NCBI GenBank assembly: GCA_021806615.1
Contig: JAJZRB010000001.1
Location: forward strand, 143,201-207,200
Length of the DNA: 64,000 nucleotides
DNA from: a bacterium
GTDB taxonomy: Bacteria > Patescibacteriota > Patescibacteriia > Patescibacteriales > UBA12465
Reading direction: 5' to 3'
The notes beneath the pieces are model-generated. The model did no database searches. It was not told where the DNA came from and saw nothing but the letters and a program-made list of their open reading frames with translations. Numbering within the stretch: position 1 is the first letter of the stretch; every line of letters begins with the position of its first letter. Positions 1-59,686 of this stretch are shown here, piece after piece. Made by a program: the position numbers and the translations under genes.

Positions 1-27
1 TCCTCCTCGGTAATCTGGGGACTGAAT

Positions 28-801
28 TTATAAATCAGAAATTTCTAGAATGAGCGGGTAGTGGTCTGAAATTTCAATTTCTTCAACCGTCATTTTCCGA
101 GCTGACAATCCTTGGCTCAAGAATATGAAATCAATCGCCTCGCCCTTAGGCCGAGTGCTAGGAATATTAAAAATGGCATTGATGTTATTAAAATGCTTAC
201 TGATCAGAGAAATGCTTTCCGTCCTTAAAAGAACATTAAAATCTCCGAGCAGGATACTGGGCATATTTTTCTCCTGTAATCTTTCGAGAATGAATTCGCT
301 TTGCCGGATAGACCGCTCTGAATCCAGTTTATCAGCAGACCAAGTGCCGTGGACATTAGCCACTTGGATGATGCTCCCGCCGACTTCAATATCGCATATT
401 TGCAGAGCGCGGCCGTGATCGTCACCGTTATAAAAATTGGTCCGATCGCGGTCAAATTCATAATTTTTGTGATAAAAATAATTATAGCCGTGGACGATCG
501 GATATTTTGATAAGATCAGCTTGCCTTGCTCGACCATGCCGCCGAAATCTTTGTTTCTTAATCCGGATGGTTCGGTATGCTTATCAGCGACCCATTCGGG
601 AGCGAAAAAATAATAAGGATAATCTTCCCCTAATATCCGCCGAATGGTTTCTTCCGATCGATACAGAGGATGTACGTTTGGATCCAATGGACGGACGACT
701 TCCTGCAAACAGACGATATCCGCGGCTTGAGCCTTCAGATATTCGCCGACTTGCCGGCTGTTATCTATCTTAATACCAATATTAAAGCTGATGATTTTCA
801 T
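28..801 (-). CDS. endonuclease/exonuclease/phosphatase (EEP) family protein
   Basis: 257-aa ORF. The N-terminal MKIISFNI..ADIVCLQEV and C-terminal ..SDHYPL pattern is typical of the EEP/DNase I-like fold. Confidence 0.8.
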   Translation of the reverse strand: MKIISFNIGIKIDNSRQVGEYLKAQAADIVCLQEVVRPLDPNVHPLYRSEETIRRILGEDYPYYFFAPEWVADKHTEPSGLRNKDFGGMVEQGKLILSKYPIVHGYNYFYHKNYEFDRDRTNFYNGDDHGRALQICDIEVGGSIIQVANVHGTWSADKLDSERSIRQSEFILERLQEKNMPSILLGDFNVLLRTESISLISKHFNNINAIFNIPSTRPKGEAIDFIFLSQGLSARKMTVEEIEISDHYPLILEISDL

Positions 802-859
802 ATTATGGCTATTTCCCTATATTAGACTGACATAATTTATTATAGCATTCCCCTCATAC

Positions 860-880
860 AAAAACAGCCCTTTCGGACTG
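860..880 (-). terminator. hairpin plus T-run after the cupin unit
   Basis: Minus-sense CAGTCC-GAAA-GGGCTG followed by TTTTTG. It lies 12 nt downstream of element E copy 1. Confidence 0.6.
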
Positions 881-892
881 TCTCTGTTTAGT

Positions 893-920
893 GAGCTCCT
901 TTTGGAGTTTGGTTATAAAT
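893..920 (-). repeat. 28-bp element E, copy 1
   Basis: gagctccttttggagtttggttataaat, identical to copies at 1409-1436 and 3089-3116. It lies 21 nt after the cupin stop codon. Confidence 0.9.
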
Positions 921-941
921 TTAGATAAATAGAAACTAAGC

Positions 942-1295
942 TTATTCAGTTCTCTCCGTTATTTCTTTATTTGGATCATAAGCGGGGGTATGGACTAAAA
1001 ACATCTTTAATACTCCGTTTATGGATTTATAATCATATTCAATATTTTTAGGAAGAATACAGACGTCCGACTTAGCAACATGAATTATTTCGTTATTAAT
1101 TTCAAATTCGCCCTCGCCGTCGATAATATAATAAATTCTATCACTTTCTGTAGCCTTGGTTTTACCATGACTGCCAGTAACTTCGAAATAGGCAGCGCTT
1201 GCTCTAGGAAATTCTTCTTTGGAGTTGAAGGCCCACCCCTTTAAGCCATTCCAGCCGAACTCTCGCGCATTTTTAAGTGTAAATTTCATATTCAC
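942..1295 (-). CDS. cupin domain protein
   Basis: 117-aa ORF with a single beta-barrel pattern (..YFEVTGSHGKTKATESDRIYYIIDGEGEF..ILPKNIEY..) resembling small cupins. Confidence 0.6.
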   Translation of the reverse strand: MNMKFTLKNAREFGWNGLKGWAFNSKEEFPRASAAYFEVTGSHGKTKATESDRIYYIIDGEGEFEINNEIIHVAKSDVCILPKNIEYDYKSINGVLKMFLVHTPAYDPNKEITERTE

Positions 1296-1374
1296 TTTTT
1301 ATATAAATTACATTTTTATTATATCATTTGAGGTAATTTTTATAAACTTTTCAAAAAGGTGTTTCTAGAGTATC

Positions 1375-1400
1375 AAAAAATGCCCTAAGATTAAGGCATT
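1375..1400 (-). terminator. hairpin plus T-run after the 228-aa ORF
   Basis: Minus-sense AATGCC-(10 nt loop)-GGCATT followed by TTTTTT. Confidence 0.6.
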
Positions 1401-1408
1401 GTTTGTTG

Positions 1409-1436
1409 GAGCTCCTTTTGGAGTTTGGTTATAAAT
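1409..1436 (-). repeat. 28-bp element E, copy 2
   Basis: Perfect copy located 5 nt after the TAG stop of ORF 1442..2128. Confidence 0.9.
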
Positions 1437-1441
1437 TAATA

Positions 1442-2128
1442 CTATTCATAATTAAGAATTATACCTTGCCCTCCTATAACAAAACCATTTCTATTACTTA
1501 AAGTTTGCTTCTTGGGATAATCTGGAACCAAGGTACGCAACAACTCATGAGTTATCTGCCTAATTGCAGCTAATTCTGCTCCTTTCACTGGTATCCATTT
1601 ATCACTGTAATCTCTGGAAACCCAGCCCAATGAATTGCTTCTACTAAGGCTTGCATATTTTTCATTTAATTCAGGGTCTACATGAGAACCGCCGTCTTGA
1701 TTGGCTACCGCAAGGACAATATCTTTGCGACTATAGCTATTCCCCAGCTTGTCATTAAAAATTATTTCACTCCAGTAATTCTCAAAGTCTATATACCCAG
1801 TAATATCGTTGGATGAATCGAAGTTTGGCACATAACCGCCAGCGTCTCCTATGAGTAGCCCGACCAATCCTGCATACCCTCCGACTAGCTGTTGATTGTC
1901 TGAAAGTTTTGGTGGCTTTACACAAGTACTTAAGAATTTAGTATCCTTTAAATTTAACTGACCCAACAATGAGTGTGATTTAAGCGTGTCATGTAAAAGA
2001 ATCCTTATAGTCGTCGCCATTCTTTTTGATTCCGATTCAAAACCTCTATCATACGCCTGGGCGGACAACTTCAAAAATTCAATTTGATCATTTAGCTGAT
2101 TTTGGAGATCGTCTAATGTTTGTTTCAT
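1442..2128 (-). CDS. hypothetical protein (228 aa), coupled to HEPN-like paralog A
   Basis: Long ORF whose start lies 10 nt after the stop of ORF 2139..3002. No family recognised. The C-terminal ..AAIRQITHELLR.. is only Rx3H, so it is not a canonical HEPN motif. Confidence 0.6.
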   Translation of the reverse strand: MKQTLDDLQNQLNDQIEFLKLSAQAYDRGFESESKRMATTIRILLHDTLKSHSLLGQLNLKDTKFLSTCVKPPKLSDNQQLVGGYAGLVGLLIGDAGGYVPNFDSSNDITGYIDFENYWSEIIFNDKLGNSYSRKDIVLAVANQDGGSHVDPELNEKYASLSRSNSLGWVSRDYSDKWIPVKGAELAAIRQITHELLRTLVPDYPKKQTLSNRNGFVIGGQGIILNYE

Positions 2129-2138
2129 AAAACCAATA

Positions 2139-3002
2139 TTATAAACTGACGTGTGGCAAAAAATCTAAAGATATTTTTTTAAATAAAGAAAGAAGATTCC
2201 CCTTTATCATCTTGCAATATTCAAACATGTCTGTACCACTCGGTAATTGAGGATTACGTAATATTTTTTTTCTATTATCTAAAACGAAAAGTTGTAGGCT
2301 ATAGACTTTTGATCGATGGGCGACCATATTGCGTAACTTATGAACCTCATCGATCCAATTATCAATCTCTGTCTCAAAAAGATCAGCTAATTTTCTTTCT
2401 TTGACTCCTTTACTCGCTCGTAAACTGGCGATAGTCTTCTCTCCAGCTTTTTGCCCACCTCTAAATCCGATTATCCATTCCTCTCCATCAAGACATGGGT
2501 AAAATATTTTCAAAAGATGAATTAGTACATCAAGAGAAGAATATACTTGCATTAGAAAGGATTCAAACTCAAACAGAATAACGTCATTAATAAATTCAGT
2601 TTCTGATAAATTCATAGGCAATTTCTCATAAACCGGGGGGACTAAATTTTTTATTTCATTCTCAATTAGGGAAAAACTGTAATTCACGGCTTGCATTTTA
2701 TGTCGGCAGTTTTCAATAGCAATATCCAAATTGTTCATTTTTTTATTATCCTTTAATTTACGTACAAATATGCCATTTAAAATTTTTTGCTCGTCAGAAT
2801 TTAAAACTGAATCTAAATCAGACATGGTTTTATTTACCGATTTATTTAAAACTTCTTTTTCTTCATCACTAATCCTAAAACCATCCATTCCCAAGTCTAT
2901 ATCCGAAAATAAGCCTACCGACTCTCTTCTGTACTGATCAAATCTAGAATCTGATAATAAGAGCTTGTCTCTCATAATGTTATAATAACTATCTTCTGGC
3001 AT
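2139..3002 (-). CDS. HEPN-like (RNxxxH) protein, paralog A
   Basis: The track ORF 2139..3155 was trimmed to Met52 (ATG at 3002). The longer form reads through a terminator hairpin and element E, and the trimmed N-terminus (MPEDSYYNIMRDKLLLSDSRFD) aligns with paralog B (MSRYKIMKDKILFSDRRFD). Shared motifs are ENCRHK, YSxxLIENE, ExESFxxQV, AGExT and LRNMVAHRS (R-N-x3-H). Confidence 0.7.
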   Translation of the reverse strand: MPEDSYYNIMRDKLLLSDSRFDQYRRESVGLFSDIDLGMDGFRISDEEKEVLNKSVNKTMSDLDSVLNSDEQKILNGIFVRKLKDNKKMNNLDIAIENCRHKMQAVNYSFSLIENEIKNLVPPVYEKLPMNLSETEFINDVILFEFESFLMQVYSSLDVLIHLLKIFYPCLDGEEWIIGFRGGQKAGEKTIASLRASKGVKERKLADLFETEIDNWIDEVHKLRNMVAHRSKVYSLQLFVLDNRKKILRNPQLPSGTDMFEYCKMIKGNLLSLFKKISLDFLPHVSL

Positions 3003-3031
3003 ACTATTAATTTTTTTAAAAATTAAAATAC

Positions 3032-3054
3032 AAAAACCCTCATTACGAGGGTTT
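3032..3054 (-). terminator. hairpin plus T-run after HEPN-like paralog B
   Basis: Minus-sense AAACCCTC-GTAAT-GAGGGTTT followed by TTGTATTTT. It is preceded by a second perfect palindrome, GGGGGTTTATAAACCCCC (3064-3081). Confidence 0.65.
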
Positions 3055-3065
3055 CTGTAGTCTGG

Positions 3066-3092
3066 GGGTTTATAAACCCCCGTAAATGGAGC
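3066..3092. repeat. 27-bp imperfect direct repeat, distal copy (DR-L)
   Basis: gggtttataaacccccgtaaatggagc matches 6222-6248 (ggatttataaatccccctatatggagc) at 23 of 27 positions in the same orientation. Confidence 0.7.
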
Positions 3093-3116
3093 TCCTTTTG
3101 GAGTTTGGTTATAAAT
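3089..3116 (-). repeat. 28-bp element E, copy 3
   Basis: Perfect copy. It overlaps the last three codons (P-Y-L) and the TAA stop of ORF 3109..3930. Confidence 0.9.
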
Positions 3117-3930
3117 ATGGCTCGTCGGAAATCCTTTTAAGTTCTGGCGAGACAAAATTGTCTAAAATAGTCTTATATAGATTCAGTAATTTATTGTATA
3201 TATCTTGACAATATCTAAGCACTTCCGTGTTATCAGGCATTAACGGTTTAACTACTTTTCCGCTACCAGATTCATAGACAAAACACGTAAAGCCCTTAAG
3301 CGCGGATCTATGGACTATATTATTACGTAATTCATTTAAATTCTGAATCCAAGTGTCTATTTGTTCATCAAAAAATTCTGCCATTTCAGAATTACCACCT
3401 TTTCTCACGAAATCGGCGGTAGTTTCGCCCGCCCTTCTGTCGCTCTTAAAACTTGCTTTATCATTACCTCTTTCATCAATATAAGGGTACAAGTATTTTA
3501 AAAGCTGCACAATAATATCTAAATTGCCTCGCACTTGAGATACGAATGATTCAGTTTCATTTATAAGCACTTCATTCATTAACTCTGCATATGGAAACAT
3601 CTTATTTTTTATCATTTCGGAATATTCTTCTATCTCCTGTTTAGTCGGCCCAAAGTTAACTTCATTTTCAATTAAAGCTAGAGAATATCTTGCGGCAGCT
3701 AACTTGTGTCTACAATTTTCTACTCTTACTCTTATATCATCTAGTAATTTTGATATTGCGATATGCTTTCCCGTGCCCGCCTCTTTCGTTGTGCGAGGTG
3801 GCCTATAAAACCCCTCTATTGGCATATCAAAAATTTTATTAATCTCCTCATAAACTGTATCAAATCTTCTGTCCGAAAACAGTATTTTGTCTTTCATAAT
3901 TTTATAGCGGCTCATATTAGTAAAAATCAT
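3109..3930 (-). CDS. HEPN-like (RNxxxH) protein, paralog B
   Basis: 273-aa ORF, a divergent paralog of 2139..3002, with LRNNIVHRS (R-N-x3-H), ENCRHK and ETESFVSQV motifs. An alternative start is Met6 at 3915. Confidence 0.7.
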   Translation of the reverse strand: MIFTNMSRYKIMKDKILFSDRRFDTVYEEINKIFDMPIEGFYRPPRTTKEAGTGKHIAISKLLDDIRVRVENCRHKLAAARYSLALIENEVNFGPTKQEIEEYSEMIKNKMFPYAELMNEVLINETESFVSQVRGNLDIIVQLLKYLYPYIDERGNDKASFKSDRRAGETTADFVRKGGNSEMAEFFDEQIDTWIQNLNELRNNIVHRSALKGFTCFVYESGSGKVVKPLMPDNTEVLRYCQDIYNKLLNLYKTILDNFVSPELKRISDEPYL

Positions 3931-3957
3931 CTATACAATAAAAGTCAGATTCCTTAA

Positions 3958-4245
3958 CTACTTGATAAAAGGAATTTTATCTAAAATATATCTTCTTTTT
4001 CTTTCTAACTCCTCGAAAATAAATTTATTTTTTTCTTTAATCTGTAAAATGCGTCCGTCCATAATACTCTGAAGGACCGGCTTTTGCTTCTCTGCCTCTA
4101 TCGCATTGTTTAATTCCTTATACTTAATTTTTAAGTCTCTTTCAATTATAACTACTCGCACATAGGACATTACAACATGAAAAATTGCTAAAACGGCAAA
4201 TAATTTTAAAAAATAATCTACATATTTAAATACAATGGTGAGCAT
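3958..4245 (-). CDS. small membrane protein (N-terminal TM helix plus charged coiled-coil tail)
   Basis: 95-aa ORF, 27 nt upstream of paralog B and 17 nt downstream of ORF 4263..4760. It has a hydrophobic FLKLFAVLAIFHVVMSYVRVVII segment followed by a K/E-rich helix. Confidence 0.5.
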   Translation of the reverse strand: MLTIVFKYVDYFLKLFAVLAIFHVVMSYVRVVIIERDLKIKYKELNNAIEAEKQKPVLQSIMDGRILQIKEKNKFIFEELERKRRYILDKIPFIK

Positions 4246-4262
4246 ATTTCAAAAGCTAAATT

Positions 4263-4760
4263 CTAGGTTCTTTTTTGCCAAAACGCTACGATAGCTAAAA
4301 TTATTGTCCCAACTGCCATTATCCAGGTGCCGAGCACCAGCCAGAAATTCATTTTACGCTGATTTTTCAGAGAATCAATGGCAGTATATTCTGCAGTTGA
4401 TATTTCATAACCACACAAATTACAGACAACGGTGGACGGATATGATTTTTCAGAAGTTTGTACAAAGGGCATGCGCTGGATAAATTTATGCTCACATCCA
4501 TTAACCTTAGATTGATTTTTTATAATACTAATTTCTCTCACCCCGAACTCTGTTATTCTTATGGCTCCATCTTCTCCCCAAATTATTTTTCCGCTATCAG
4601 CCATTCGGCGCATAAGAGCCTTAAATTTAACCATCTGAACATAATCACCACCTTTAACAAACTGATTTTCAAGTTTAGGATAAATTTGATTAAATTGAGG
4701 GCCGACTTCTTCGTTAATAATTTTAATTTGTTCTAAAATTTGCATCTCTTTTTCTTCCAT
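4263..4760 (-). CDS. C-terminally membrane-anchored protein with a CxH...CxxC zinc-ribbon-like motif
   Basis: 165-aa ORF with ..NGCEHKF..(22 aa)..VVCNLCGYE.. and a terminal TM helix FWLVLGTWIMAVGTIILAIVAFW. No family recognised. Confidence 0.55.
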   Translation of the reverse strand: MEEKEMQILEQIKIINEEVGPQFNQIYPKLENQFVKGGDYVQMVKFKALMRRMADSGKIIWGEDGAIRITEFGVREISIIKNQSKVNGCEHKFIQRMPFVQTSEKSYPSTVVCNLCGYEISTAEYTAIDSLKNQRKMNFWLVLGTWIMAVGTIILAIVAFWQKRT

Positions 4761-4820
4761 ATTTATAAACAGATTAACGCTTAAATTATTTTGATGTACT
4801 TATATCATCCCAATCATCGG

Positions 4821-5276
4821 TTATTTGCCACTTGGGTTATTATCTAATATTTTATAGGACAAATTTACATCCAACGGTGTCTCCGAAGCAACTTCAAATT
4901 TAGTACCTTTTTTTTGTAATATTCTATAGTAATATCTCCCACCCTCGGTTATCTGTATGCCCTGCATGTTTGTTATACTTCTTAATCTCTTTTCACCTTT
5001 TTTTGCCTTTAGGCCAACGGAAAATTCATTTAAAACTTCTCCCTTAGGATCCACGAGATCTATCTTTATTTCAGCTAAATTTTCCCTTGTATCGTCTTCG
5101 ATAGTCCAAAAACTAATAAGCTGAAGATTAAAAGGAATAACTAGCTTATCATTTTTAGACATCTTTTTCCTATCAATCATTAACTGCACTTCTTCAATAC
5201 AGTTAAATAAACTAAGGAGATTGGTTTGAGCATCTATTGATGATTTTTCACAAATTATTGACCAAATGTTTTTCAT
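4821..5276 (-). CDS. hypothetical protein (151 aa, predicted all-beta)
   Basis: ORF starting 11 nt after the XRE gene stop. No motif recognised. Confidence 0.5.
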   Translation of the reverse strand: MKNIWSIICEKSSIDAQTNLLSLFNCIEEVQLMIDRKKMSKNDKLVIPFNLQLISFWTIEDDTRENLAEIKIDLVDPKGEVLNEFSVGLKAKKGEKRLRSITNMQGIQITEGGRYYYRILQKKGTKFEVASETPLDVNLSYKILDNNPSGK

Positions 5277-5287
5277 ATTTTTATTAT

Positions 5288-5698
5288 TTATTTAGTAGAT
5301 ATATTATAAGCCTCATGCGATAAAACGTTGTCCCTTAATCTATCAGCGGTGTTATTTATCGTCCCACCGCCTGCGAATATAATGTTATATGGGATATTAA
5401 AATCTAAAATACTACTCCAGCTTTTATAACTAAAATTTAAAACACTTGCTATTCGATTAAGCAGTGCAAAACCAATATTAACATCTCCGCTCTCAACTCT
5501 TGAAATAACCTTCTGAGTCGTTTGAGCTTCTTTAGCTAACTTTTGCTGACTCATACCAAGAGCTTCTCTGGTATTATAAATCTCAACTCCCAACCTTATT
5601 CTTTCCATTGCTTCTCTTGAAAATTTTTCAAAATACTTACCCTTTCTGGCCTCTGCCATCGGATCAATATTTAATTTTTTGTTATTCATATTTTTCAT
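5288..5698 (-). CDS. XRE-family helix-turn-helix protein (HigA-like antitoxin candidate)
   Basis: 136-aa ORF. The HTH_3-type segment is ..LGMSQQKLAKEAQTTQKVISRVESGDVNIGFALLNRIA... It overlaps the upstream toxin-like gene by 17 nt. Confidence 0.75.
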   Translation of the reverse strand: MKNMNNKKLNIDPMAEARKGKYFEKFSREAMERIRLGVEIYNTREALGMSQQKLAKEAQTTQKVISRVESGDVNIGFALLNRIASVLNFSYKSWSSILDFNIPYNIIFAGGGTINNTADRLRDNVLSHEAYNISTK

Positions 5699-6107
5699 AA
5701 TTTTTTGGATTTAATTTAAAAATATTTAAATACTTCTCACCAATCTTGTTTTGTTTATCAACTTTTTTCTTCTCTCTGTCGGTATCATAATTGACAGGCT
5801 TCTCAAAAGCATGAAGAAGAACTATTTTTTCTTGATGTCGAAAATAAAGAATTCTAATAACTGTTGTTTCGTCTTTGGGATTCAATATTTCAAAACAACT
5901 ATAGCCATGTAATGGTTTAGAAATTGGAGGAGTCGGCCTACCTTCGTTGCCCTTAACATGCTGTATCTTAGCATCTATATTAGCTAGTATTTTCTGCTTT
6001 CTTTTAACAACTGCTTCTTTATCTCCTTTGTTTTCTCGATATTGTTTTAAATATTCCTTTACCGGGCAGTTTTTTGAACCTTTATCATAAAAATAAACAG
6101 GTTCCAT
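5682..6107 (-). CDS. RelE/HigB-like toxin of the Gp49 (DUF891) type
   Basis: 141-aa ORF. ..PVKEYL..AKIQHV..KPLHGYSCFEI..IRILYFRHQEKIVLLHAFEK.. follows the Gp49/RelE pattern. The toxin-first order matches higBA-type pairs. Confidence 0.7.
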   Translation of the reverse strand: MEPVYFYDKGSKNCPVKEYLKQYRENKGDKEAVVKRKQKILANIDAKIQHVKGNEGRPTPPISKPLHGYSCFEILNPKDETTVIRILYFRHQEKIVLLHAFEKPVNYDTDREKKKVDKQNKIGEKYLNIFKLNPKNYEKYE

Positions 6108-6136
6108 ATTTACATGATTAAATTGATTCTAACCTT

Positions 6137-6164
6137 ATTATATCCTATTGGATATAATTGTCAA
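6137..6164 (-). promoter_or_regulatory. near-consensus sigma70-type promoter with an embedded palindromic operator
   Basis: Minus-sense TTGACA (6164-6159), a 16-nt spacer, then TATAAT (6142-6137). A perfect inverted repeat TTATATCC-n4-GGATATAA (6138-6157) spans the spacer and the -10 element. Confidence 0.7.
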
Positions 6165-6172
6165 TACCAATT

Positions 6173-6200
6173 ACAAAAGCCCTCCCAAAATGGGAAGGCT
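6173..6200 (-). terminator. terminator of the tmRNA/tRNA-Leu/tRNA-Gly unit
   Basis: Minus-sense AGCCTTCCC-ATTTT-GGGAGGGCT (9-bp stem including one G-U pair) followed by TTTTG. Confidence 0.75.
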
Positions 6201-6221
6201 CTTGTAAACACTGGGACTTAT

Positions 6222-6248
6222 GGATTTATAAATCCCCCTATATGGAGC
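6222..6248. repeat. 27-bp imperfect direct repeat, tRNA-proximal copy (DR-R)
   Basis: It matches 3066-3092 at 23 of 27 positions. Positions 6243-6248 are the GCTCCA 3' terminus of tRNA-Gly. Confidence 0.7.
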
Positions 6249-6317
6249 GGGTAACGGGAATTGAACCCGTCTCTCGACCTTGGCAAGGTCGCATAATAGC
6301 CACTATACGATACCCGC
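6243..6317 (-). tRNA. tRNA-Gly(GCC), CCA encoded
   Basis: Hand-folded cloverleaf with acceptor GCGGGTA/TACCCGC, anticodon arm CGACC-TTGCCAA-GGTCG and T arm ACGGG-TTCAATT-CCCGT. Confidence 0.9.
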
Positions 6318-6336
6318 AAATTTGAAAAGCTGAAAG

Positions 6337-6420
6337 TGCCGCGGGCGGGAATCGAACCCGCACTGTATCGCTACAACTGGATTTTAAGTCCAGCGCGTCT
6401 GCCAGTTCCGCCACCGCGGC
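6337..6420 (-). tRNA. tRNA-Leu(TAA), long variable arm, no encoded CCA
   Basis: Acceptor GCCGCGG/CCGCGGC, anticodon arm CTGGA-CTTAAAA-TCCAG, T arm with GGTTCGATTCC. Confidence 0.9.
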
Positions 6421-6433
6421 TCTTTTGTCAATG

Positions 6434-6822
6434 TGGAGATGATGGGAGTTGAACCCATGTCCAGCCGGCTTACCTAAATACATTTACAAGATTAGGCCGA
6501 TTTCGTTTGTTTTAACTTTAATCATCAAAACCGGACGAAAAGCGACTAAAGCGATCTTTCTTTTGTTTCGACATACCCCGGAAAGAGCAAAATATATCTA
6601 TCCTCATGTTTATGACACCGGAAATGCGACTATGAAGACTCATCGCGCCCGATGGTTACGGCTTATTTTTATTAGGCCATAACTGGAGCATAGCTCGGAG
6701 TTAACCAAGTAAATGCTCTTGCCATAGATTTGGCATTTGTGTTTTTTTAGCCAGTTTGGCGTGATGACTAAGCACGTCCTGAATATTTAGATAGAATCCA
6801 GCTGTCGATTCCTTTCATCCCC
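6434..6822 (-). ncRNA. ssrA: tmRNA
   Basis: The 5' GGGGATG pairs with the 3' CATCTCC and includes G3-U70. The T arm is ATGGG-TTCAACT-CCCAT with discriminator A. An internal reading frame ends in TAATAA. It lies 26 nt downstream of smpB. Confidence 0.85.
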
Positions 6823-6848
6823 CTCCTGTCTGCCCCGGCCACGGGGCT

Positions 6849-7307
6849 TTAACGCCTTTTTGTTAAAGACCGCAAACTGCGCTCTACTTCTCGTTTTTTT
6901 ATCGCCTCGCGCTTATCATATTTCTTCTTTCCGCGCGCTACGGCGAACTCCAATTTCAGAAAACTATGATTAGTATATATTTGGAGAGGTATCAGTGTCA
7001 AGCCCTCGGTTTGCTGCCGGCCGATAAGGCGAGCGATCTCTCCCCGCTTCAATAATAACTTCCGTTCACGCCGGGGATCGTAGTCTGGTAGGGGACCGGC
7101 CTGCTTATAAGGCGAGATCTGGCAACCGATTAAATAAAGCTCCGGCCGGCTGTTTTTACGGCGCACGCTTATGAAGCTGCCCTTGAGGCTGAGTTGCCCG
7201 GCGCGGACTGCTTTGACTTCGTGGCCATACAGAACCAGGCCCGCCTCATATTTTTCCAGGAGCTCATAATCAAAGCTAGCTTTCTTGTTTTGCGCCAGTG
7301 GGGCCAT
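6849..7307 (-). CDS. smpB: SsrA-binding protein
   Basis: 152 aa with the ..NKKASFDYELLEKYEAGLVLYGHEVKA.. signature. It is adjacent to the tmRNA. Confidence 0.95.
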   Translation of the reverse strand: MAPLAQNKKASFDYELLEKYEAGLVLYGHEVKAVRAGQLSLKGSFISVRRKNSRPELYLIGCQISPYKQAGPLPDYDPRRERKLLLKRGEIARLIGRQQTEGLTLIPLQIYTNHSFLKLEFAVARGKKKYDKREAIKKREVERSLRSLTKRR

Positions 7308-17539: not shown

Positions 17540-19324
17540 TTAACCCAGATATTCCTTGATCCGATAATCCTCCCGTCCGCTTTCCTTGTTACGCTGAAGC
17601 CGCAGGCAACTATCGCAGTGCCCGCAAGGCTTGGCTTCCGGGTCGCCAAAATATCTCAAGATATATTCTTGGCGGCAACCGAGATCATAAACGTAATTTT
17701 CCATTTCATCCAATTTTTCATAAGCCCGCGCCGCCTTGGTCTTTAAAGCCTTAAAATCCAAATTCAGGTCTTCTGAAGCCACGATCTTTAGGAGTTTGAT
17801 CTCCGTACCACGAAAGGGCGGGCGATATTCAACGAGATCTTTCTCGGCCAATTTCTTCACGGCCCGCAGCAAAGAATCCTTTTTAACCTTTAAAACAATA
17901 GCGACCTCTTCTGGATTAAACTCCCAGCCGGTGGCTAATTCCCGGTGATATTTCTCTTCTAGCTTATCGATTATTTCTCTTTGGCTCTTAGCGCGGGGGC
18001 TGAGAGCCGAACTGACTGACGCCCAGTCTTTTTTAAGCTTCAAGAATGAGTTGGAATTCTTTTCATTGGGACGCGTTATATAACCTTCTTTTTCTAATAT
18101 CTTCAAAGCGGTTCCGATGGCCATTTCCGGCAGAGCCGTTGATAGGTTTTGGACGATTTCGGCGTAAGTCAGGAGAATGGACGCTTCAGGATCTATCTCT
18201 AAGCCGGCGCGCCGGACTAAAAAATCATATATTTCAATAATGGCTTCCGGCTCAGGATTATCTCCCTTAATGAAAAATTCCCGCAAATAACGGTCTTGCT
18301 GATGATAAAACAAGATGCAGAAACTGAGTGCTCCGTCACGGCCGGCTCGTCCGGCCTCCTGGTAATAAGCCTCGATGGTCCCCGGCAAATCATGGTGAAT
18401 AACGAATCGAATATCCTTCTTATTGATTCCCAGACCGAAAGCGTTGGTAGCGACGACGACTTGAGCCTCTCCGCGCATGAATTGTTCTTGCACCCAATTA
18501 CGACTATTAGCATCCATGCCGGCATGATACCCCACGGCTTTGATATCATTATCCATCAAGACTTCTAAAATTTCATCGGCTTTAGCTCTGGTTCCGACAT
18601 AAATAATCCCAGCGCCCATGGCCGGATTAGTAGTCAGGAGGTTGACGATATTTTCAATCTTCTGTCCGTTCGCTGTGGGCACGACAGCGAACTGCAAATT
18701 CGGCCGAGCAAAGCCGGTAATGACTAATTCGCATTTTTTGAGCCCCAGCTGCTTGACGATGTCGTCTCTGACTTCCGGCGTGGCCGTGGCCGTCAAAGCG
18801 GCTACTGTCGGCGAACCGACATATTTGATCGCCTCTTTAAGCCGCAGATAACTCGGCCTAAAATCATGGCCCCATTGACTGATGCAATGAGCCTCATCAA
18901 TCGCAAACAGCGCGATTTTCAATTTCTTCAAAGCTGACAAAAAATTTTGATTATAGAAACGCTCCGGGGCGATATAAATTATTTTATAAACCCCCTCTTT
19001 GACCTGGTCCAAACGCTTTTCGGTCTCAGCTAACGAAATAGTCGAATTGATAAAAGTCGCCGGAATCCCGACTCTTTCCAGAGAATCGACCTGGTCTTTC
19101 ATCAGGGCGATAAGCGGAGAAACTACCAAAGTGACACCATCTAATATCAAGGCGGGTAATTGATAAATCAAAGATTTGCCGCCGCCTGTCGGTAGTACCA
19201 CGATCGTACTACGATCAGCCAATATATTATCGATCGCTCTTTCTTGGCCGGGCAGAAAAGATCCATAGCCAAAATGAATTTTCAGTAATTCCTTTAATTG
19301 TTGTTTCTTTTGGAGCATGTTCAT
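17540..19324 (-). CDS. recQ: RecQ-family ATP-dependent DNA helicase
   Basis: 594 aa with GGGKSLIYQLPA, IDEAHCISQWGHDFRP and AGRAGRDG motifs. A C-terminal CRQEYILRYFGD..CGHCDSC zinc motif is present. Confidence 0.9.
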   Translation of the reverse strand: MNMLQKKQQLKELLKIHFGYGSFLPGQERAIDNILADRSTIVVLPTGGGKSLIYQLPALILDGVTLVVSPLIALMKDQVDSLERVGIPATFINSTISLAETEKRLDQVKEGVYKIIYIAPERFYNQNFLSALKKLKIALFAIDEAHCISQWGHDFRPSYLRLKEAIKYVGSPTVAALTATATPEVRDDIVKQLGLKKCELVITGFARPNLQFAVVPTANGQKIENIVNLLTTNPAMGAGIIYVGTRAKADEILEVLMDNDIKAVGYHAGMDANSRNWVQEQFMRGEAQVVVATNAFGLGINKKDIRFVIHHDLPGTIEAYYQEAGRAGRDGALSFCILFYHQQDRYLREFFIKGDNPEPEAIIEIYDFLVRRAGLEIDPEASILLTYAEIVQNLSTALPEMAIGTALKILEKEGYITRPNEKNSNSFLKLKKDWASVSSALSPRAKSQREIIDKLEEKYHRELATGWEFNPEEVAIVLKVKKDSLLRAVKKLAEKDLVEYRPPFRGTEIKLLKIVASEDLNLDFKALKTKAARAYEKLDEMENYVYDLGCRQEYILRYFGDPEAKPCGHCDSCLRLQRNKESGREDYRIKEYLG

Positions 19325-33944: not shown

Positions 33945-35069
33945 TTATTGTCTGATCGGCATTACTATATATAAGTATTTATCGTCTTTTTCCGGTTTTA
34001 ACAAACAAGGAGTAGTACTATTTAAAATATTGATTTTTACCCTTTCATCGGCAATATTATTTAAACCATCTATCAGATAGCGATAATTGATTGTTATCTC
34101 ATTATCATCGCCCTTGATATCGGCGAGAACTTCTATCTGGCTTTCGCCGCTTGCGCCGGAAAAAGCAGAAACAATAATTTTATTTTTAACGAAACGCAAC
34201 GCGACATCGTTGATACCGGTTTTAGAAAACAGCGCCGCCGCTTTAACCGCCCGGGATAATTCTTGTCGTTCAACCAAAACATCAGTTTGGCTCTTGACTG
34301 GAATAATCTGCTTATAATCCGGGTAGTGGCCGTTAATCAGCCGGGAAATCAGATCAACCGAGTCAACCGTAAATAATATTTGGTTTTCCGCCAAATAAAT
34401 TTTTAGTTCTTGTTCCTCGCTTTGTCCGCTACCATAAAAATTATTAAGCACTCTTAATAGTTCTTGGGTTGTCCTGGCCGGCACGATAACTTTATGTTCT
34501 TCATTTATATCCGACCCACTTATACTGATTTCTCTTTCCGCCAAGCGATAACTGTCCGTGGCCGCCAGGTGAAGGCTGTTTTTATTAAAAGAAAACAATA
34601 CGCCGGTCAACTCTACTCGGTTTTCACTTGTAGAAACAGCAAAAACTACGCTTTCTAAAGCTTTTTTAAAATCATCGGCTTGGCAGCTATAATAATTATC
34701 TTTAGGAATAGATGGTATCAGCGGAAACTCTTTTGACGACTCACCCTTTATTTTTGTTTTATAACTGCCGCACTCCACCTTTAATTCCCCGTCTTTCTCC
34801 TCTAATTTGACCTTTTCGCCGCCGCTCAACAAAGAAACATATTCGGATATCAGCTTGGAGTCTACGGTGAATTGTCCTTCCTGTTCTATCTTGCCGCGCA
34901 ACTGGTAAACTATGCCTATTTCCAGGTTAGTGCTAATCAACTCAATGTTCCCGTTTTCTGTTTTAATTAAGACATTGTTAAGAATCGGCAAGTTAATATT
35001 CTTAGCCGTTACATGCCCGACGATATTTAAACCCCTTTTTAAATTTTCTTGCAAGCTGATAAGACGCAT
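33945..35069 (-). CDS. dnaN: DNA polymerase III beta sliding clamp
   Basis: 374 aa, immediately downstream of dnaA, with a typical three-domain length and a ..MPIRQ C-terminus. Confidence 0.92.
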   Translation of the reverse strand: MRLISLQENLKRGLNIVGHVTAKNINLPILNNVLIKTENGNIELISTNLEIGIVYQLRGKIEQEGQFTVDSKLISEYVSLLSGGEKVKLEEKDGELKVECGSYKTKIKGESSKEFPLIPSIPKDNYYSCQADDFKKALESVVFAVSTSENRVELTGVLFSFNKNSLHLAATDSYRLAEREISISGSDINEEHKVIVPARTTQELLRVLNNFYGSGQSEEQELKIYLAENQILFTVDSVDLISRLINGHYPDYKQIIPVKSQTDVLVERQELSRAVKAAALFSKTGINDVALRFVKNKIIVSAFSGASGESQIEVLADIKGDDNEITINYRYLIDGLNNIADERVKINILNSTTPCLLKPEKDDKYLYIVMPIRQ

Positions 35070-35330
35070 ATGATTAGCTGCCTATTATATTATTAATTCT
35101 TTAATTAGTAATTAATAATAGTAATAAGGGCGGGGATAACTGTTTGTTTTTATATATTTTCTATTTTTTATTGGGAACTTTTAAGATTTTATAGTTAATA
35201 ACCTATAGTATTAAATGTTAATTGTTTTCGCGAGATTGTTGATAAATAAATTTGTTTTTTAATTATCAACAACTTATTATAACTTATCTCCCGGAAACTA
35301 ACAGCCTTTCAACAAGATATAAACATCTGG
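35070..35330. other. candidate oriC segment (dnaA-dnaN intergenic region)
   Basis: The noncoding stretch is very AT-rich. DnaA-box-like 9-mers are tgttgataa (35237-35245) and ttatcaaca (35263-35271), each 8/9 to TTATCCACA, plus cggggataa (35131-35139, 7/9). Confidence 0.55.
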
Positions 35331-36728: not shown

Positions 36729-36969
36729 AATAGGGTAATAAAGGTAGCTTCTCAGGCTTAATTTAAATAAAAATAATAGATCGGATAGTCAACTTATGGT
36801 AGCTTAATTATATTAGATAAACTATTTTACCACAAGCGAGCGCTTTGTTTAAAATATGTTAATAATTAGTGGATAACTATCAATGGTTAAGCTATATTGT
36901 TTGTTGACTCCTCCAGATAAAGATGTTATGTTGTATGCGAAGATAATAATAAAATAAAATTAAAGACTT
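36729..36969. other. dnaA-rpmH divergent intergenic region (second candidate oriC/promoter segment)
   Basis: AT-rich, with a DnaA-box-like agtggataa (36868-36876, 8/9). The rpmH promoter candidate is TTGACT-17-TATGTT. Confidence 0.45.
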
Positions 36970-37107
36970 ATGCCGAAAAGGACCTATCAGCCGAATAAGC
37001 GCCGTGCTAAGAAAAAACATGGTTTTTTAAAGAGAATGGCGACTAAAGACGGCCGCGAAGTTTTAAAGCGCCGGAGACAAAAGGGTCGTAAGAAACTGTC
37101 AAAATAA
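36970..37107 (+). CDS. rpmH: 50S ribosomal protein L34
   Basis: Hand-translated 45-aa ORF not in the track: [45 protein letters not shown]. Confidence 0.93.
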
Positions 37108-37125
37108 CGTTAATTTTGACGCCCT

Positions 37126-37467
37126 GTGTTAAAGAAAGACAATAGAATGCTGAAAAATAAAGATTTTGACCGGGCTTTCAAGCTCGGCCAATCTTTTTAT
37201 GGTAAAATATTAGGGTTGAAATCGGCCGATAATGATCTTTTAAAGACTAGATTGGGAATTCTAATAAGCACTAAAGTCAGCAAGAAGGCAGTCATTAGAA
37301 ATCATTTTAGACGTCAAATTAGAGAAATAGTAAGAAAAGAACTCCCTCTTCTCAAAAACGGTAAAGATCTGGTTATTATAGTTTTTCCTCAAATATTAGA
37401 TAAAAAATTTGATGAAATAGAAAAGATATTAGTAAGTATTTTTAATCGTTTAAAATTGTATAAATAG
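37126..37467 (+). CDS. rnpA: ribonuclease P protein component
   Basis: 113 aa, basic, at the conserved position after rpmH. The start is either GTG at 37126 or ATG at 37147. Confidence 0.88.
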   Translation: MLKKDNRMLKNKDFDRAFKLGQSFYGKILGLKSADNDLLKTRLGILISTKVSKKAVIRNHFRRQIREIVRKELPLLKNGKDLVIIVFPQILDKKFDEIEKILVSIFNRLKLYK

Positions 37468-37487
37468 ACTAATATTAGTTAAATTAA

Positions 37488-37745
37488 ATGTATAAATATT
37501 TTAAATATTGGCCGAGAAGAACAATAGTATTTTTGATCAAGCTTTATCAAATAACCCTGTCTTTTGATCATGGGCCGTTAAAGATTTTTTATCCGCACGG
37601 TTTCTGCCGTTTTACCCCCTCTTGCTCTCAATATGGAATAGAAGCTTTTTCTAAATACGGAATAGTCAAAGGCGGCGTTCTGACCAGCTGGCGCATATTA
37701 CGCTGTAATCCTTGGAATAAAGGCGGATATGATCCTGTAAAGTAG
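37488..37745 (+). CDS. yidD: membrane protein insertion efficiency factor YidD
   Basis: 85 aa with ..[18 protein letters not shown]...RILRCNPW... Confidence 0.92.
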
Positions 37746-41091: not shown

Positions 41092-41114
41092 ATTTGAATC
41101 AACAGTAATTGTTG

Positions 41115-59631: not shown

Positions 59632-59657
59632 AGCTGGTTTTTTGAATGAAATTTTGT

Positions 59658-59686
59658 TTGACTTTTCGCTATTTTTAAGCTATAAA
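59658..59686 (+). promoter_or_regulatory. candidate infC operon promoter
   Basis: TTGACT, 17-nt spacer, TATAAA. It diverges from the 16S promoter. Confidence 0.55.

Follow-up and report, generated by a model that had tools for sequence, protein, structure and literature searches.

A probable tandem array of gene cassettes bounded by a 28-nt site downstream of tRNA-Gly in a Patescibacteria genome

Is the AT-rich stretch that follows a tRNA-Gly gene in a Patescibacteria (CPR) genome one island that has lost its integrase, or a stack of units acquired separately? We analysed 64 kb of DNA around this locus (hereafter the window). The compositional shift claimed by the first-pass annotation is borne out: the GC content of positions 802–6242 is 0.332, compared with a mean of 0.432 (sd 0.018, minimum 0.383) in 210 other 5.4-kb windows; the tetranucleotide L1 distance is 0.335 vs. 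0.144±0.024 (maximum 0.216), about 8 SD out; and GC3 is 0.21–0.34 in the island genes vs. 0.49–0.56 in smpB, tig, and hppA. As also stated there, all ten island ORFs (10/10) lie on the minus strand, and neither Pfam/NCBIfam searches of the island ORFs nor a crude motif scan of 60 greedily selected non-overlapping window ORFs of at least 80 aa returned an integrase, transposase, or relaxase. The accessory island is real and was acquired horizontally, and its description as a non-housekeeping island of foreign composition, at a tRNA-linked hot spot and with no recombinase of its own, is supported.

The geometry of the locus had been described less accurately. ARAGORN and Rfam place tRNA-Gly(GCC) at 6243–6317, tRNA-Leu(taa) at 6336–6420, and tmRNA at 6433–6822, all on the minus strand; therefore, the island abuts the 3′ end of tRNA-Gly and lies downstream of the tRNAs, which had been called 5′ of it. 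The tRNA-Gly 3′ end, ...ACCCGCTC(CA), forms the proximal boundary and appears to be the insertion point. tRNA-Leu and tmRNA, previously counted as part of the hot spot, have no visible role, the target being specifically the tRNA-Gly 3′ end: in one relative (L090) the array stands behind tRNA-Asp/tRNA-Gly with no tRNA-Leu between, and tmRNA is not visible in the stretch of L090 examined.

Within the island, three exact 28-nt direct repeats, ATTTATAACCAAACTCCAAAAGGAGCTC on the minus strand, had been overlooked, and the earlier description is to that extent incomplete. The copies (R3, 3089–3116; R2, 1409–1436; R1, 893–920; zero expected by chance) share one orientation and occur nowhere else in the 64 kb; each is preceded by a gene and followed by an intrinsic terminator and a promoter, and they close cassettes 1, 2, and 3 (3154, 1680, and 516 bp, respectively). 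The picture of a single island thereby gives way to a stack of four or more units, set off by an exact site and with all their features on the minus strand.

Cassette 1 opens with a trailer of type A (6165–6242; CATATAGGGGGATTTATAAATCC... plus an intrinsic terminator hairpin at 6207–6171), a type also found after tRNA-Gly or 28-mers in other genomes, and a perfect sigma-70 promoter (TTGACA-16-TATAAT, 6137–6164; 12/12 match). A Gp49/HigB-like putative toxin (5682–6107, 141 aa; PF05973, E 1.6e-4, below the curated cut-off) overlaps by 17 nt an HTH_3 (Xre-type) putative antitoxin or regulator (5288–5698, 136 aa; PF01381, E 2.7e-10), whose matches to NCBIfam antitoxin models lie below cut-off (Y4mF, E 1.9e-11, 43.7 bits vs. 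71.65; HigA, E 2e-3, 17.9 bits vs. 47.7). Next come o151 (4821–5276; a weak DUF6941 match, no significant family), the Cys-rich o165 with a C-terminal TM segment (4263–4760), and o95 with a TM segment and coiled coil (3958–4245), the latter two also matching no significant family; we assign all three to cassette 1 because they are packed with gaps of 10–60 nt. HEPN-like paralog A (3109–3930, 273 aa, RNNIVH motif) ends the cassette, its stop codon lying inside R3. No site interrupts part of cassette 1 (six or seven genes over 3.1 kb), a point against the cassette reading.

Cassette 2 consists of the R3 trailer, also of type A (3029–3088; palindrome GGGGGTTTATAAACCCCC plus terminator 3059–3029), HEPN/AbiD-like paralog B (2139–3002, 287 aa from the ATG at 3002, RNMVAH motif; PADLOC AbiD E 4e-5, Abi_2 E 2e-3), and o228 as its second gene (1442–2128; no match in Pfam, PADLOC, or NCBIfam). 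The 100-nt stretch formed by R3 and its trailer is 89–91% identical to its counterparts in L094 and L096. Paralogs A and B are 32% identical (E 3e-40) and both carry the Rx4H motif; the family of paralog B is rare (9 clusters), with homologs within a type I R-M operon and beside an MmeI-type R-M gene. In cassette 3, the R2 trailer, type D (1318–1408; terminator 1400–1379, cupin extended −10 promoter TG-TATAAT at 1346–1318), precedes a sole gene for a small cupin-fold protein (942–1295, 117 aa), which scores just over the curated cut-off for AraC_binding, a cupin-type ligand-binding domain (E 3.6e-5), and below it for Cupin_2 (E 4.9e-4).

Cassette 4 extends the array past the left border previously drawn at about 800. 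It comprises the R1 trailer, type C (839–892; terminator CAGTCC-GAAA-GGGCTG-TTTTT at 880–860, extended −10 TGCTATAAT at 847–839), and an endonuclease/exonuclease/phosphatase-family (EEP) gene (28–801, 257 aa; PF03372, E 3e-16). The GC content of this gene (0.43) is core-like, yet it is cassette-borne elsewhere, with a 28-mer after it in L095 and as the second cassette in L081, which carries the same combination of type C trailer and EEP gene. We count it as a cassette here too because in the window's own strain, seen in contig L101, the array ends at maf, ~43 nt past the EEP stop and beyond the window edge. The 28-mer expected after EEP is absent in this strain, probably through deletion; at positions 1–35, ATTTATAA is joined directly to what is left of a type A trailer, its distal part (…CCCCAGATTACCGAGG).

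L101 comes from an independent run (SRR13189623) on another sample, is 100% identical to window positions 1–6300, from tRNA-Gly to EEP, and continues 2.6 kb further into maf; this identity gives no sign of ongoing mobility in the window genome. It also bears on whether foreign AT-rich DNA was chimerically joined to a CPR contig at the tRNA during assembly or binning. Many related contigs do break within 500 nt of tRNA-Gly, as such an artefact would have it; with L101 and the same architecture in ~20 assemblies, including contigs of 473 and 492 kb, we give it next to no probability.

The gene content of 802–6242 is as first described, and the family matches there are all weak, with no convincing match for o151, o165, o95, and o228 in Pfam, PADLOC, or NCBIfam. 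The cargo is predicted to comprise toxin–antitoxin and defence-like genes: judging from sequence, the putative TA pair, the two putative HEPN RNases, the cupin, the EEP protein, and the ORFs with no family match most likely serve phage defence or addiction.

Comparison with relatives reveals how the locus varies. More than 25 relatives keep the order smpB-ssrA-tRNA-Leu-tRNA-Gly, each with different content downstream, which is the outcome predicted for the comparison that the first-pass annotation had proposed; L012 has an essentially empty site, in which tRNA-Gly is followed by ~310 nt and then maf, with no array, and maf is the array end in both the window strain and L088. Behind tRNA-Gly, ~20 independent related assemblies carry 1–5 copies of the 28-mer in the same orientation among unrelated genes (median unit 833 bp, range 226–4559; 65/73 ORFs co-oriented). 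A PWM scan of 1.36 Mb (the window plus 99 loci) at a threshold of at least 16 bits found 52 copies, compared with a null rate of about one match per 1.4 Mb; 50 of these lie co-oriented in arrays with every visible tRNA-Gly upstream, the exceptions being lone matches in L086 and L097. By the same scan, the 10 kb upstream of smpB held no copy in 80 relatives. The 473- and 492-kb contigs match the pattern at the tRNA-Gly locus only. The consensus is ATTTATAACCAAAC(T/C)(G/C)CAAAAGGAGCTC; it is conserved at 27/28 positions between species whose trigger factors are only ~73% identical, implying selection on the 28-mer itself.

These comparisons largely refute the decaying single island of the first-pass annotation, in which the repeats would be an incidental regulatory motif associated with 3′-UTRs or terminators. 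Foreign composition, the tRNA flank, and the missing integrase agree with that reading, as does an AAGGAG within the 28-mer, which lies between stop codon and terminator and so could be transcribed. We nevertheless consider it very unlikely: the repeats are exact, locus-specific, kept across species around unrelated cargo, and coincident with homology breakpoints; many copies have terminators on both flanks; no copy of the tRNA 3′ end was found within the island; and Rfam returned no match to the 28-mer. Moreover, if 28-mer and trailer formed a single sRNA unit, they would be expected to travel together, but they segregate independently. Between the two earlier options, “mobilised in trans” fits better than “decayed”.

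The junctions point to how the units may move. The only stretch common to the 28-mer and the tRNA-Gly 3′ end is GCTC, and after it the tRNA-Gly junction is equivalent to the 28-mer junctions to the nucleotide: trailers of the same sequence types, at least five in number, follow both, in exact register in 40/55 similar tRNA-Gly/28-mer pairs, some 100% identical over 32 nt. Where the same cassette is found in two genomes, homology begins right after GCTC (F22 and F23) and ends where the 28-mer ends (F13). The trailers that follow the 28-mer of F9 likewise differ, which is compatible, although homology there fades 33–57 nt earlier. Up to and including the final 28-mer base, L084 and L091 share 97.5% identity; past it they are unrelated. 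Even strains 99.4% identical (L001 and L098) do not carry the same cassettes between two 28-mers, and they are further set apart by a 218-nt unit bounded by tRNA-Gly 3′-end repeats. The 28-mer has no dyad symmetry and no conserved hairpin; sharing only GCTC with the tRNA-Gly end, the partner sites thus resemble no characterised att pair, a weakness of the cassette reading.

In our view, the space between tRNA-Gly(GCC) and maf, a core gene, was probably filled by site-specific insertion, catalysed in trans, of four or more gene cassettes, each acquired independently and now standing in tandem. Each cassette would run from a trailer with an intrinsic terminator through its own promoter and one to seven genes to the 28-bp end site; it would be excised between two “...GCTC↓” junctions (arrow, point of joining) and re-inserted at such a junction, usually the tRNA-Gly 3′ end, so that older cassettes would be pushed away from the tRNA and each newcomer would give the tRNA operon a new terminator. 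The array does not encode the enzyme, which would thus have to act in trans. Read from the tRNA, the trailers in the window are of types A, A, D, and C, with a remnant of A before maf; serial insertion at the tRNA junction predicts exactly this order, which suggests the direction and order of insertion given above. A simple cassette scheme does not account for the many different genes that stand behind a trailer of one and the same type.

DNA uptake occurs in CPR bacteria, and exchange might instead proceed through RecA-dependent crossovers in shared anchors (tRNA-Gly/tmRNA, 28-mers, common trailers, maf) with no dedicated enzyme. The recent L001/L098 exchange breaks inside the 28-mer, with a 7-nt duplication, as homologous recombination rather than cassette movement would have it; the L084/L091 breakpoint fits a crossover anywhere in the identical 28-mer; dprA lies in the window (51671–52810, identified by reading the N-terminal sequence of the ORF); and no recombinase was found in the window or in the ~20 arrays, apart from an rve gene, IS481/IS3-like, next to L099 and, in L084 and L091, Y1 transposases of IS200 type, a scarcity that also counts against the cassette scheme. 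However, crossovers explain neither how the same 28-mer came to stand at the 3′ end of unrelated genes nor how at least five trailer types were joined at the same nucleotide to tRNA-Gly and 28-mer, which share 4 nt, and the interspecies conservation of the 28-mer implies selection on a site. We regard homologous recombination alone as unlikely, and infer that a site-specific enzyme makes the junctions.

The cassette array is best read as something other than a canonical integron or a single decayed island, and we found no description of such an integron-like, integrase-less layout in the literature searched. Like integrons (attI with attC arrays, including sedentary chromosomal integrons and CALINs), it is a co-oriented array of small (~0.3–3 kb), mostly single-gene cassettes whose cargo is accessory, TA, or of no known function, with a conserved site at each cassette end, the boundary at the 3′ edge of that site, and insertion apparently at one fixed primary site; CALINs, too, can lack a nearby integrase. 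Unlike integrons, the window array yielded no IntI, its primary site is a tRNA gene 3′ end, its host phylum is Patescibacteria, no cassette depends on Pc, each having a terminator and promoter of its own, and the site is a non-palindromic 28 bp, whereas attC is an imperfect hairpin of 57–141 nt with R''/L''/L'/R' boxes and a GTTRRRY core.

With tRNA-targeting islands that grow by tandem accretion, CIMEs, and SCCmec-type composites, the array shares insertion at the 3′ end of a conserved gene left intact and elements stacked in direct orientation with direct repeats between them; CIMEs likewise lack a recombinase and are mobilised in trans. Relatives (L002, L012, L023, and others) show the classical form at the same tRNA-Gly, with exact 16-nt copies of the tRNA 3′ end bounding inserts of 0.2–8.9 kb. 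In the window's clade, by contrast, the repeat is not a tRNA-end copy, the units are gene-sized rather than 10–100 kb, and an integrase-bearing “master” element was seen in none of the ~20 arrays. Xer-dependent elements (IMEX at dif; pdif modules of Acinetobacter plasmids) also have 28-bp sites delimiting integrase-less modules, which a host-encoded recombinase moves, and IMEX form arrays in direct orientation; but our 28-mer has no 11-6-11 dyad structure or resemblance to dif, the locus lies ~30 kb from oriC rather than at the terminus, a tRNA end takes the place of a second 28-mer as the proximal site, and pdif sites alternate in orientation.

The IS200/IS605 family and PATEs resemble the array in having no target duplication, no inverted ends, strict orientation, a fixed tetranucleotide 5′ of the insertion, and a hairpin near each left end, terminator-like as in IS200. 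The cassettes might be non-autonomous relatives moved by single-strand (HUH/Y1) transposition, inserting 3′ of GCTC on the lagging-strand template, with the terminal GCTC regenerating the target and so yielding tandem arrays. Complete IS200-type units (Y1_Tnp, E 1e-33) do lie directly 5′ of 28-mers in L084 and L091, and the element's top strand in the window is the lagging-strand template. Against this, the borders of those IS appear to be TTAT↓...T(T/C)AT↓ and not GCTC; their end hairpins (ACCACCSGC...) differ from the heterogeneous trailer hairpins; the 28-mer offers no right-end hairpin; the transposase is missing from the window and occurs in only two of ~20 related loci; conservative recombination is suggested instead by the 16-nt duplications of the tRNA end seen in relatives; and, to our knowledge, cargo-carrying tandem arrays are not a behaviour of this family. 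We consider this route improbable. The direction of replication was deduced from dnaA/dnaN, at 34–37 kb in the window, alongside the GC-skew minimum.

Our analysis shows that the region directly behind tRNA-Gly(GCC) (802-6242) differs in composition from its surroundings: its GC content is 0.332, compared with a mean of 0.432 (s.d. 0.018) and a minimum of 0.383 for 210 other 5.4-kb windows of the same 64 kb; its strand-symmetrised tetranucleotide distance to the remaining window is 0.335 vs. 0.144 ± 0.024 (8 s.d. out); and GC3 is 0.21-0.34 for its genes vs. 0.49-0.56 for smpB, tig and hppA. All ten of its ORFs lie on the minus strand, in agreement with the first-pass annotation, which had described an AT-rich, all-minus-strand island. 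The tmRNA (6433-6822), tRNA-Leu(taa) (6336-6420) and tRNA-Gly(gcc) (6243-6317) genes occupy the minus strand as well, so the island begins right after the tRNA-Gly 3′ end; its first base is the base directly following ...GCTCCA, and the tRNA gene is intact. Family scans concur with the gene content read earlier (a cupin, two HEPN-like paralogs, a TA-like pair and four unrecognised ORFs), all matches being weak, and bear out the reported lack of a recombinase, finding no integrase, transposase or relaxase among the island ORFs. Tyrosine, serine and HUH recombinase motifs are likewise absent from a greedily selected set of 60 window ORFs, non-overlapping and 80 aa or longer; tblastn gives no match to an IS200 transposase in the window; and the island, the window and the arrays examined contain no integrase gene of their own beside an att site.

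The earlier reading of foreign DNA at a tRNA gene holds, but it overlooked three exact 28-nt repeats. On the minus (gene) strand, the sequence ATTTATAACCAAACTCCAAAAGGAGCTC occurs in three co-oriented copies (3089-3116, 1409-1436 and 893-920); no further copy exists in the 64 kb even at three mismatches, and none arises in 100 shuffles. Each copy lies directly 3′ of a gene: the stop codon of HEPN-A (3109-3930) is inside the site, and the sites behind o228 (1442-2128) and the cupin gene follow at +5 and +21 nt, respectively. An intrinsic terminator stands 4-35 nt past each copy, and the promoter of the next gene comes after the terminator, with TG-extended −10 boxes before the cupin and EEP genes and a perfect TTGACA-16-TATAAT promoter past the terminator of tRNA-Gly. 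The 28-mers divide the locus into four minus-strand units: unit 1 (6242-3089; 3154 bp, seven genes), unit 2 (3088-1409; 1680 bp, HEPN-B and o228), unit 3 (1408-893; 516 bp, the cupin gene) and unit 4 (892 leftwards, EEP). A search of 1-7000 against Rfam at a permissive threshold returned only the tmRNA and the tRNAs, and no family for the 28-mer/trailer unit; we rejected the idea that 28-mer and terminator form an sRNA gene, because each segregates independently of the other from genome to genome.

In the window and in about 35 relatives, the sequence after the ...GCTC of tRNA-Gly belongs to the same few terminator-bearing trailer types that follow the ...GCTC of the 28-mer: type A (CATTTACGGGGGTTTATAAACCCCCAG..., with terminator), type B (CAAACGAGAAACRCCATTTTATTGGTG...), type C (ACRAAACAGAGRCAGTCCGAAAGGGCTG...) and the further types D, E and F. 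This handful of types stands before many unrelated genes. We paired junctions of different classes (real tRNA end, 16-nt tRNA-end copy and 28-mer), taking the pairs with 72% identity or more over the 32 nt that follow. Offset zero gives the best register in 40 of 55, 14 of 17 and 11 of 16 cross-class pairs, and linker indels of 1-3 nt account for the off-register pairs. Some pairs reach 100% identity, one case being the trailer of tRNA-Gly in L004, a GTDB genome, and those after 28-mers in contigs L096 and L098. The only sequence common to the 28-mer and the tRNA end is GCTC.

Cassettes that occur in two genomes delimit the mobile unit. For F22 (L088/L096) and F23 (L001/L088), homology starts immediately past GCTC, showing that the trailer moves together with the downstream gene; the EEP gene is again accompanied by a type C trailer in both the window and L081. 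At the other end, homology of F13 (L083/L096) stops at the end of the 28-mer, which therefore moves with the upstream gene, and L084 and L091 share 97.5% identity across the 200 nt that finish with the final base of the 28-mer, past which they are unrelated. The trailers past the 28-mer of F9 (L081/L099) differ, which is compatible, and homology is already fading 33-57 nt earlier. These limits define a cassette as trailer/terminator, promoter, gene(s) and 28-mer, in that order.

The window reads tRNA/A-cassette 1-28-mer/A-cassette 2-28-mer/D-cassette 3-28-mer/C-EEP-(remnant of A)-maf, with maf, a core gene, lying beyond the window. Starting from an ancestral tRNA/A-maf, serial insertion at the tRNA junction would produce this order of trailers. 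The 28-mer is missing after the stop codon of the EEP gene (28-801), which encodes a nuclease/phosphatase-family protein; there, ATTTATAA is fused to the distal half of a type A trailer; the same EEP gene retains its 28-mer in contig L095. As the octamer ATTTATAA is common to the start of the 28-mer and the type A trailer palindrome, the structure fits a deletion between two such octamers. We also considered ATTTATAA as a crossover core: it accounts for the deletion after EEP, but trailers B-F lack it. The simplest account of the junctions, and in our judgement a probable one, is conservative site-specific joining immediately after ...GCTC by a putative enzyme encoded elsewhere in the genome, integron-like in logic.

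The site recurs in other genomes at the same locus. In the GTDB genomes L001 and L004, the 28-mer stands behind tRNA-Gly in the same orientation, with 1-5 mismatches and different genes around it. A degenerate-pattern scan of a metagenome collection yielded 19 loci; 17 show the typical succession of gene end, 28-mer and terminator, with at least two copies in 11 of the 17, and the remaining two matches (a TARA contig and L087) look like chance. The upstream flank of the arrays, where visible, is tmRNA-tRNA-Leu-tRNA-Gly, the exception being L090 with tRNA-Asp-tRNA-Gly, which points to tRNA-Gly itself as the partner. A position weight matrix derived from the copies gave 52 matches scoring 16 bits or more in 1.36 Mb (about one per 1.4 Mb in shuffled sequence, maximum 18 bits); with two exceptions they lie in arrays in which every visible tRNA-Gly is upstream and co-oriented. 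The lone match in L086 is a real copy at the usual gene end, with neither a second site nor a visible tRNA-Gly, and that in L097 is probably chance. Contigs of 473 and 492 kb, each a large part of a CPR genome, match the pattern at the tRNA-Gly locus only. Across 20 loci, sites lie 226-4559 bp apart (median 833 bp), and of 73 ORFs with 80 aa or more, 65 point in the direction of the tRNA. Viral contigs contain no match, exact or degenerate, and thus offer no evidence for a phage attP. The 28-mer or its “ATAACCA” core is largely absent from relatives L002, L006, L007 and L010-L015, indicating that only one sub-clade uses the site.

L101, a contig of the same strain that comes from a separate sequencing run, matches window positions 1-6300 at 100% identity. 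This identity and the locus-specific occurrence of the site across assemblies, including the 473- and 492-kb contigs, largely exclude both a single decayed island, one of the two options given in the first-pass annotation, and an assembly artefact. L101 extends 2.6 kb further and shows the EEP stop codon, 43 nt, maf, and then DUF3232 and core-like genes. In relative L012, tRNA-Gly is followed by about 310 nt and maf (74% identical), and the array of L088 likewise ends at maf; in this comparison, L101 and the window represent the occupied state and L012 the empty one. A search with smpB retrieved Patescibacteria MAGs, several labelled Falkowbacteria, at up to 82% identity. The order hppA-tig-smpB-tmRNA-tRNA-Leu-tRNA-Gly is conserved in at least 25 relatives; the content past tRNA-Gly, often AT-rich too, differs in each, and the island genes are downstream of tRNA-Gly in none of about 25. 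The first-pass annotation had raised the possibility of different cargo at this place, and this is what the relatives show. Contigs end within 500 nt of tRNA-Gly in 8 of the 30 best relatives (L003, L005, L008, L009, L014, L016, L019 and L020) and in L100, of the window's own species, and L081 starts there; such breaks are consistent with strain or population heterogeneity, or repeats, at the locus. In the more distant relatives L017, L021, L022, L028 and L030, an infC-rpmI-rplT block and its downstream genes directly follow tRNA-Gly, and in the window they lie 53 kb from it on the opposite strand (59652-64000, plus; the block itself at 59.7-61 kb), so that the tRNA-Gly junction is also the breakpoint of a large rearrangement.

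Recent change is visible between L001 and L098, which are 99.4% identical over 2.4 kb: between two 28-mers, one contains a single 466-nt unit and the other two cassettes totalling 1.5 kb; the left breakpoint falls within the 28-mer, and a hybrid site of 35 nt is present in L098. Homologous recombination following DNA uptake would yield such a breakpoint and could shuffle cassettes via 28-mers, trailers and the tRNA, and the dprA-like (51671-52810, minus) and recQ-like (17540-19324, minus) genes, identified by N-terminal sequence reading only, would be relevant to it if they confer a DNA-uptake and -processing capacity. However, it cannot place 28-mers behind unrelated genes, nor can it make identical junctions for left partners that share only 4 nt, and we regard it as an unlikely explanation of the arrays.

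In relatives, the tRNA-Gly 3′ end also shows the classical insertion signature. The window contains no second copy of TTCCCGTTACCCGCTC, the tRNA 3′ end, as attL/attR at up to two mismatches. Exact 16-nt copies of this end, from T-loop to discriminator, occur in L002, L003, L012, L013, L018, L023, L024, L098 and L099, bounding inserts of 174 nt to 8.85 kb; in L098, a 218-nt unit between such copies lies directly behind tRNA-Gly and is absent from L001. The larger inserts contain no integrase. Among them, L002:11037-14742 (3.7 kb) encodes a large P-loop protein resembling, as judged by sequence alone, a KAP-family NTPase, and L023:11600-20450 (8.85 kb), which encodes an HUH rolling-circle Rep (PF23343), an AIPR protein and a pair of DNA methyltransferases, may derive from an RCR plasmid or a phage that integrated here. 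These inserts make tRNA-Gly a general landing site for integrase-less elements in this family, and the window's sub-clade uses another terminal site, the 28-mer. A conserved element of about 165 nt (Z element) forms a unit of its own right behind tRNA-Gly or, in L099, behind a 28-mer cassette (L003:11104-11267, L012:5898-6062, L013:11114-11276, L018:1465-1619, L098:177-340 and L099:7346-7517). It opens with GGGAATCGAAC, in which the T-loop region of tRNA-Gly appears in reverse complement, and closes with an exact tRNA-Gly 3′-end copy; RNAalifold predicts 48 pairs from five sequences, 20 with compensatory changes; and it matches no Rfam family. L098 has the Z element and L001 lacks it; candidate identities are a structured RNA and a miniature integrative element.

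The arrays resemble several known systems in part. As in a classical tRNA island, DNA of foreign composition is inserted at the 3′ end of an intact tRNA gene, with an empty site in L012; unlike such an island, the window array has neither a flanking tRNA-3′-end repeat nor its own integrase. As in an integron, small co-oriented cassettes each end in the same site, but no intI recombinase with attI and Pc is found among the window's 60 ORFs or beside any array, and the cassettes carry their own promoters. Integron attC sites are imperfect palindromes of 57-141 nt that fold as ssDNA and carry R″/R′ (RYYYAAC/GTTRRRY). We rejected such a fold for the 28-mer, whose ssDNA folds leave the first 22 nt unpaired with a sole 4-bp CTCC/GGAG stem, which the commonest variant (CTGC) no longer has; the hairpin of the trailer is a separate structure, and no GTTRRRY stands at the 28-mer boundary. 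Sites of the dif type comprise 28 bp with two partly palindromic 11-bp arms around a 6-bp centre; the length matches, but by inspection the 28-mer lacks dyad symmetry and agrees with the XerD arm consensus at only about 7 of 11 positions, its information content, lowest at positions 15-16, is not restricted to a centre, and oriC is about 30 kb away; we rejected a site of this type. CRISPR arrays consist of short direct repeats with spacers of 25-50 nt and cas genes nearby, whereas the 28-nt repeats here are spaced 226-4559 nt apart with genes inside, and no cas genes were seen; spacing and content led us to discard the CRISPR reading. Quite possibly, though we hold this tentatively, the arrays constitute a previously undescribed integron-like gene-capture platform in Patescibacteria made of different parts: the tRNA-Gly(GCC) 3′ end would be the fixed insertion site; a conserved, non-palindromic 28-bp sequence would mark the end of every cassette; each cassette would supply its own terminator and promoter; and the putative trans-encoded enzyme would join the ...GCTC junctions. 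A full-text literature search returned no account of arrays like these, whether in Patescibacteria or beyond.

Orientation at the locus can be set against replication. The genes dnaN (33945-35069, minus) and dnaA (35331-36728, minus), rnpA/yidD/yidC-like ORFs on the plus strand from 37126, the minimum of the cumulative GC skew near 35-36 kb and a local fall in GC to 0.35 mark 33945-37500 as the likely replication origin region. The array would thus lie about 30 kb away from oriC, its genes pointing in the direction of replication. Strict orientation, on the lagging-strand template, would suit a single-strand mechanism of the IS200/IS605 type, as would the lack of target duplication and inverted ends, the fixed 4-mer before the insertion, the terminator-like left-end hairpins and the transposases (PF01797) directly 5′ of 28-mers in L084 and L091. 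Elements derived from IS200/IS605 have similar subterminal hairpins at both ends, recognised by the Y1 transposase; every cassette unit has a left-end hairpin, drawn from at least five unrelated sequences, and the right-end hairpin is absent or variable. However, the IS borders are apparently of the TTAT type, the IS hairpins differ from the trailers, and Y1_Tnp occurs among the arrays in L084 and L091 only, most arrays lacking the IS. We therefore consider this mechanism very unlikely, and the IS200-type element more likely a passenger that targets cassette ends. The complete elements directly 5′ of 28-mers (L084:2300-2948; L091:500-1146 and L091:1-199) comprise a Y1 transposase (E 1e-33), similar end hairpins (ACCACCSGC...), an RBS-sequestering hairpin and inferred borders directly after TTAT and directly after T(T/C)AT. 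The two L091 copies are only 73% identical, which suggests that cassette 3′ ends have been targeted repeatedly.

The cargo is varied and partly defence-like. Cassette 1 runs from the consensus promoter through a HigB-like/HTH pair and three small proteins, two with predicted transmembrane segments (o151 has none), to HEPN-A. The pair consists of a Gp49/HigB-like ORF (5682-6107, minus; E 1.6e-4, below the Pfam cut-off) and an Xre-type ORF (5288-5698, minus) with an HTH_3 match, the putative toxin gene coming first and the two overlapping by 17 nt. Type II toxin-antitoxin modules of the HigBA kind have a small gene for a RelE/HigB-fold toxin ahead of, and overlapping, the gene for an HTH antitoxin. 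HEPN/Abi_2 (AbiD/AbiF) RNases have an Rx4-6H catalytic motif in an all-alpha C-terminal domain. HEPN-A and HEPN-B (2139-3002, minus), which are 32% identical (E 3e-40), both contain an Rx4H motif; their matches are weak (Abi_2 E 2e-3, AbiD E 4e-5). The HEPN-B family is rare: a set of 5.8 billion proteins contains nine clusters of it. In L104 a homolog is flanked by the hsdS and hsdR genes of a type I R-M operon, and in L102 the neighbour is an MmeI-type enzyme; these R-M surroundings support a defence role for HEPN-B as a putative abortive-infection RNase. The cupin ORF (942-1295, minus) has a weak family match, and o228, o165, o151 and o95 have nothing significant in PADLOC, NCBIfam or Pfam. 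Other arrays carry a nucleoside phosphorylase, Schlafen/AlbA_2, MerR, an AAA ATPase with a trypsin-like protease, methyltransferases, a solute-binding protein, an FAD oxidoreductase, the IS200-type transposase, PEP-utilising-enzyme-like proteins (by reading of the sequence) and many ORFs without a family. A same-strand array of small ORFs in contig L103 (4049-6707) includes a HEPN-B homolog and has four copies of a 17-nt repeat of its own, AATAACCACCTCGGCGG, after genes. This repeat and the 28-mer have ATAACCA in common, and the two may be sister types of cassette site.

CPR/Patescibacteria genomes are very small and are thought to be poor in mobile elements and in room for accessory genes. 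If our reading is correct, a dedicated locus for stacking and exchanging gene-sized, self-expressing cassettes would be a main route to defence and niche genes for these bacteria, giving tiny-genome, host-dependent organisms a swappable gene set, and would represent a second case of integron-like cassette capture with a mechanism of its own. The arrays occur in about 20 independent assemblies with strain-level differences, and the locus would account for the frequent assembly breaks just past tRNA-Gly. The site is well defined, comprising 28 bp and the end of tRNA-Gly with junctions precise to the nucleotide, which makes a search for the enzyme directly testable, and the enzyme, if found, would be a compact new site-specific insertion system.

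Two further RNA genes of the window deserve mention. ARAGORN places a tRNA-Ile with anticodon TAT (UAU), uncommon in bacteria, at 41114-41188 (minus) beside tRNA-Val(gac). The tag peptide that it predicts from the tmRNA is AKSMARAFTWLTPSYAPVMA, ending in PVMA, where tmRNA tags usually have an ALAA-type end; the tags of relatives follow the same ...FTW..PSYAPV(M/L)A pattern.
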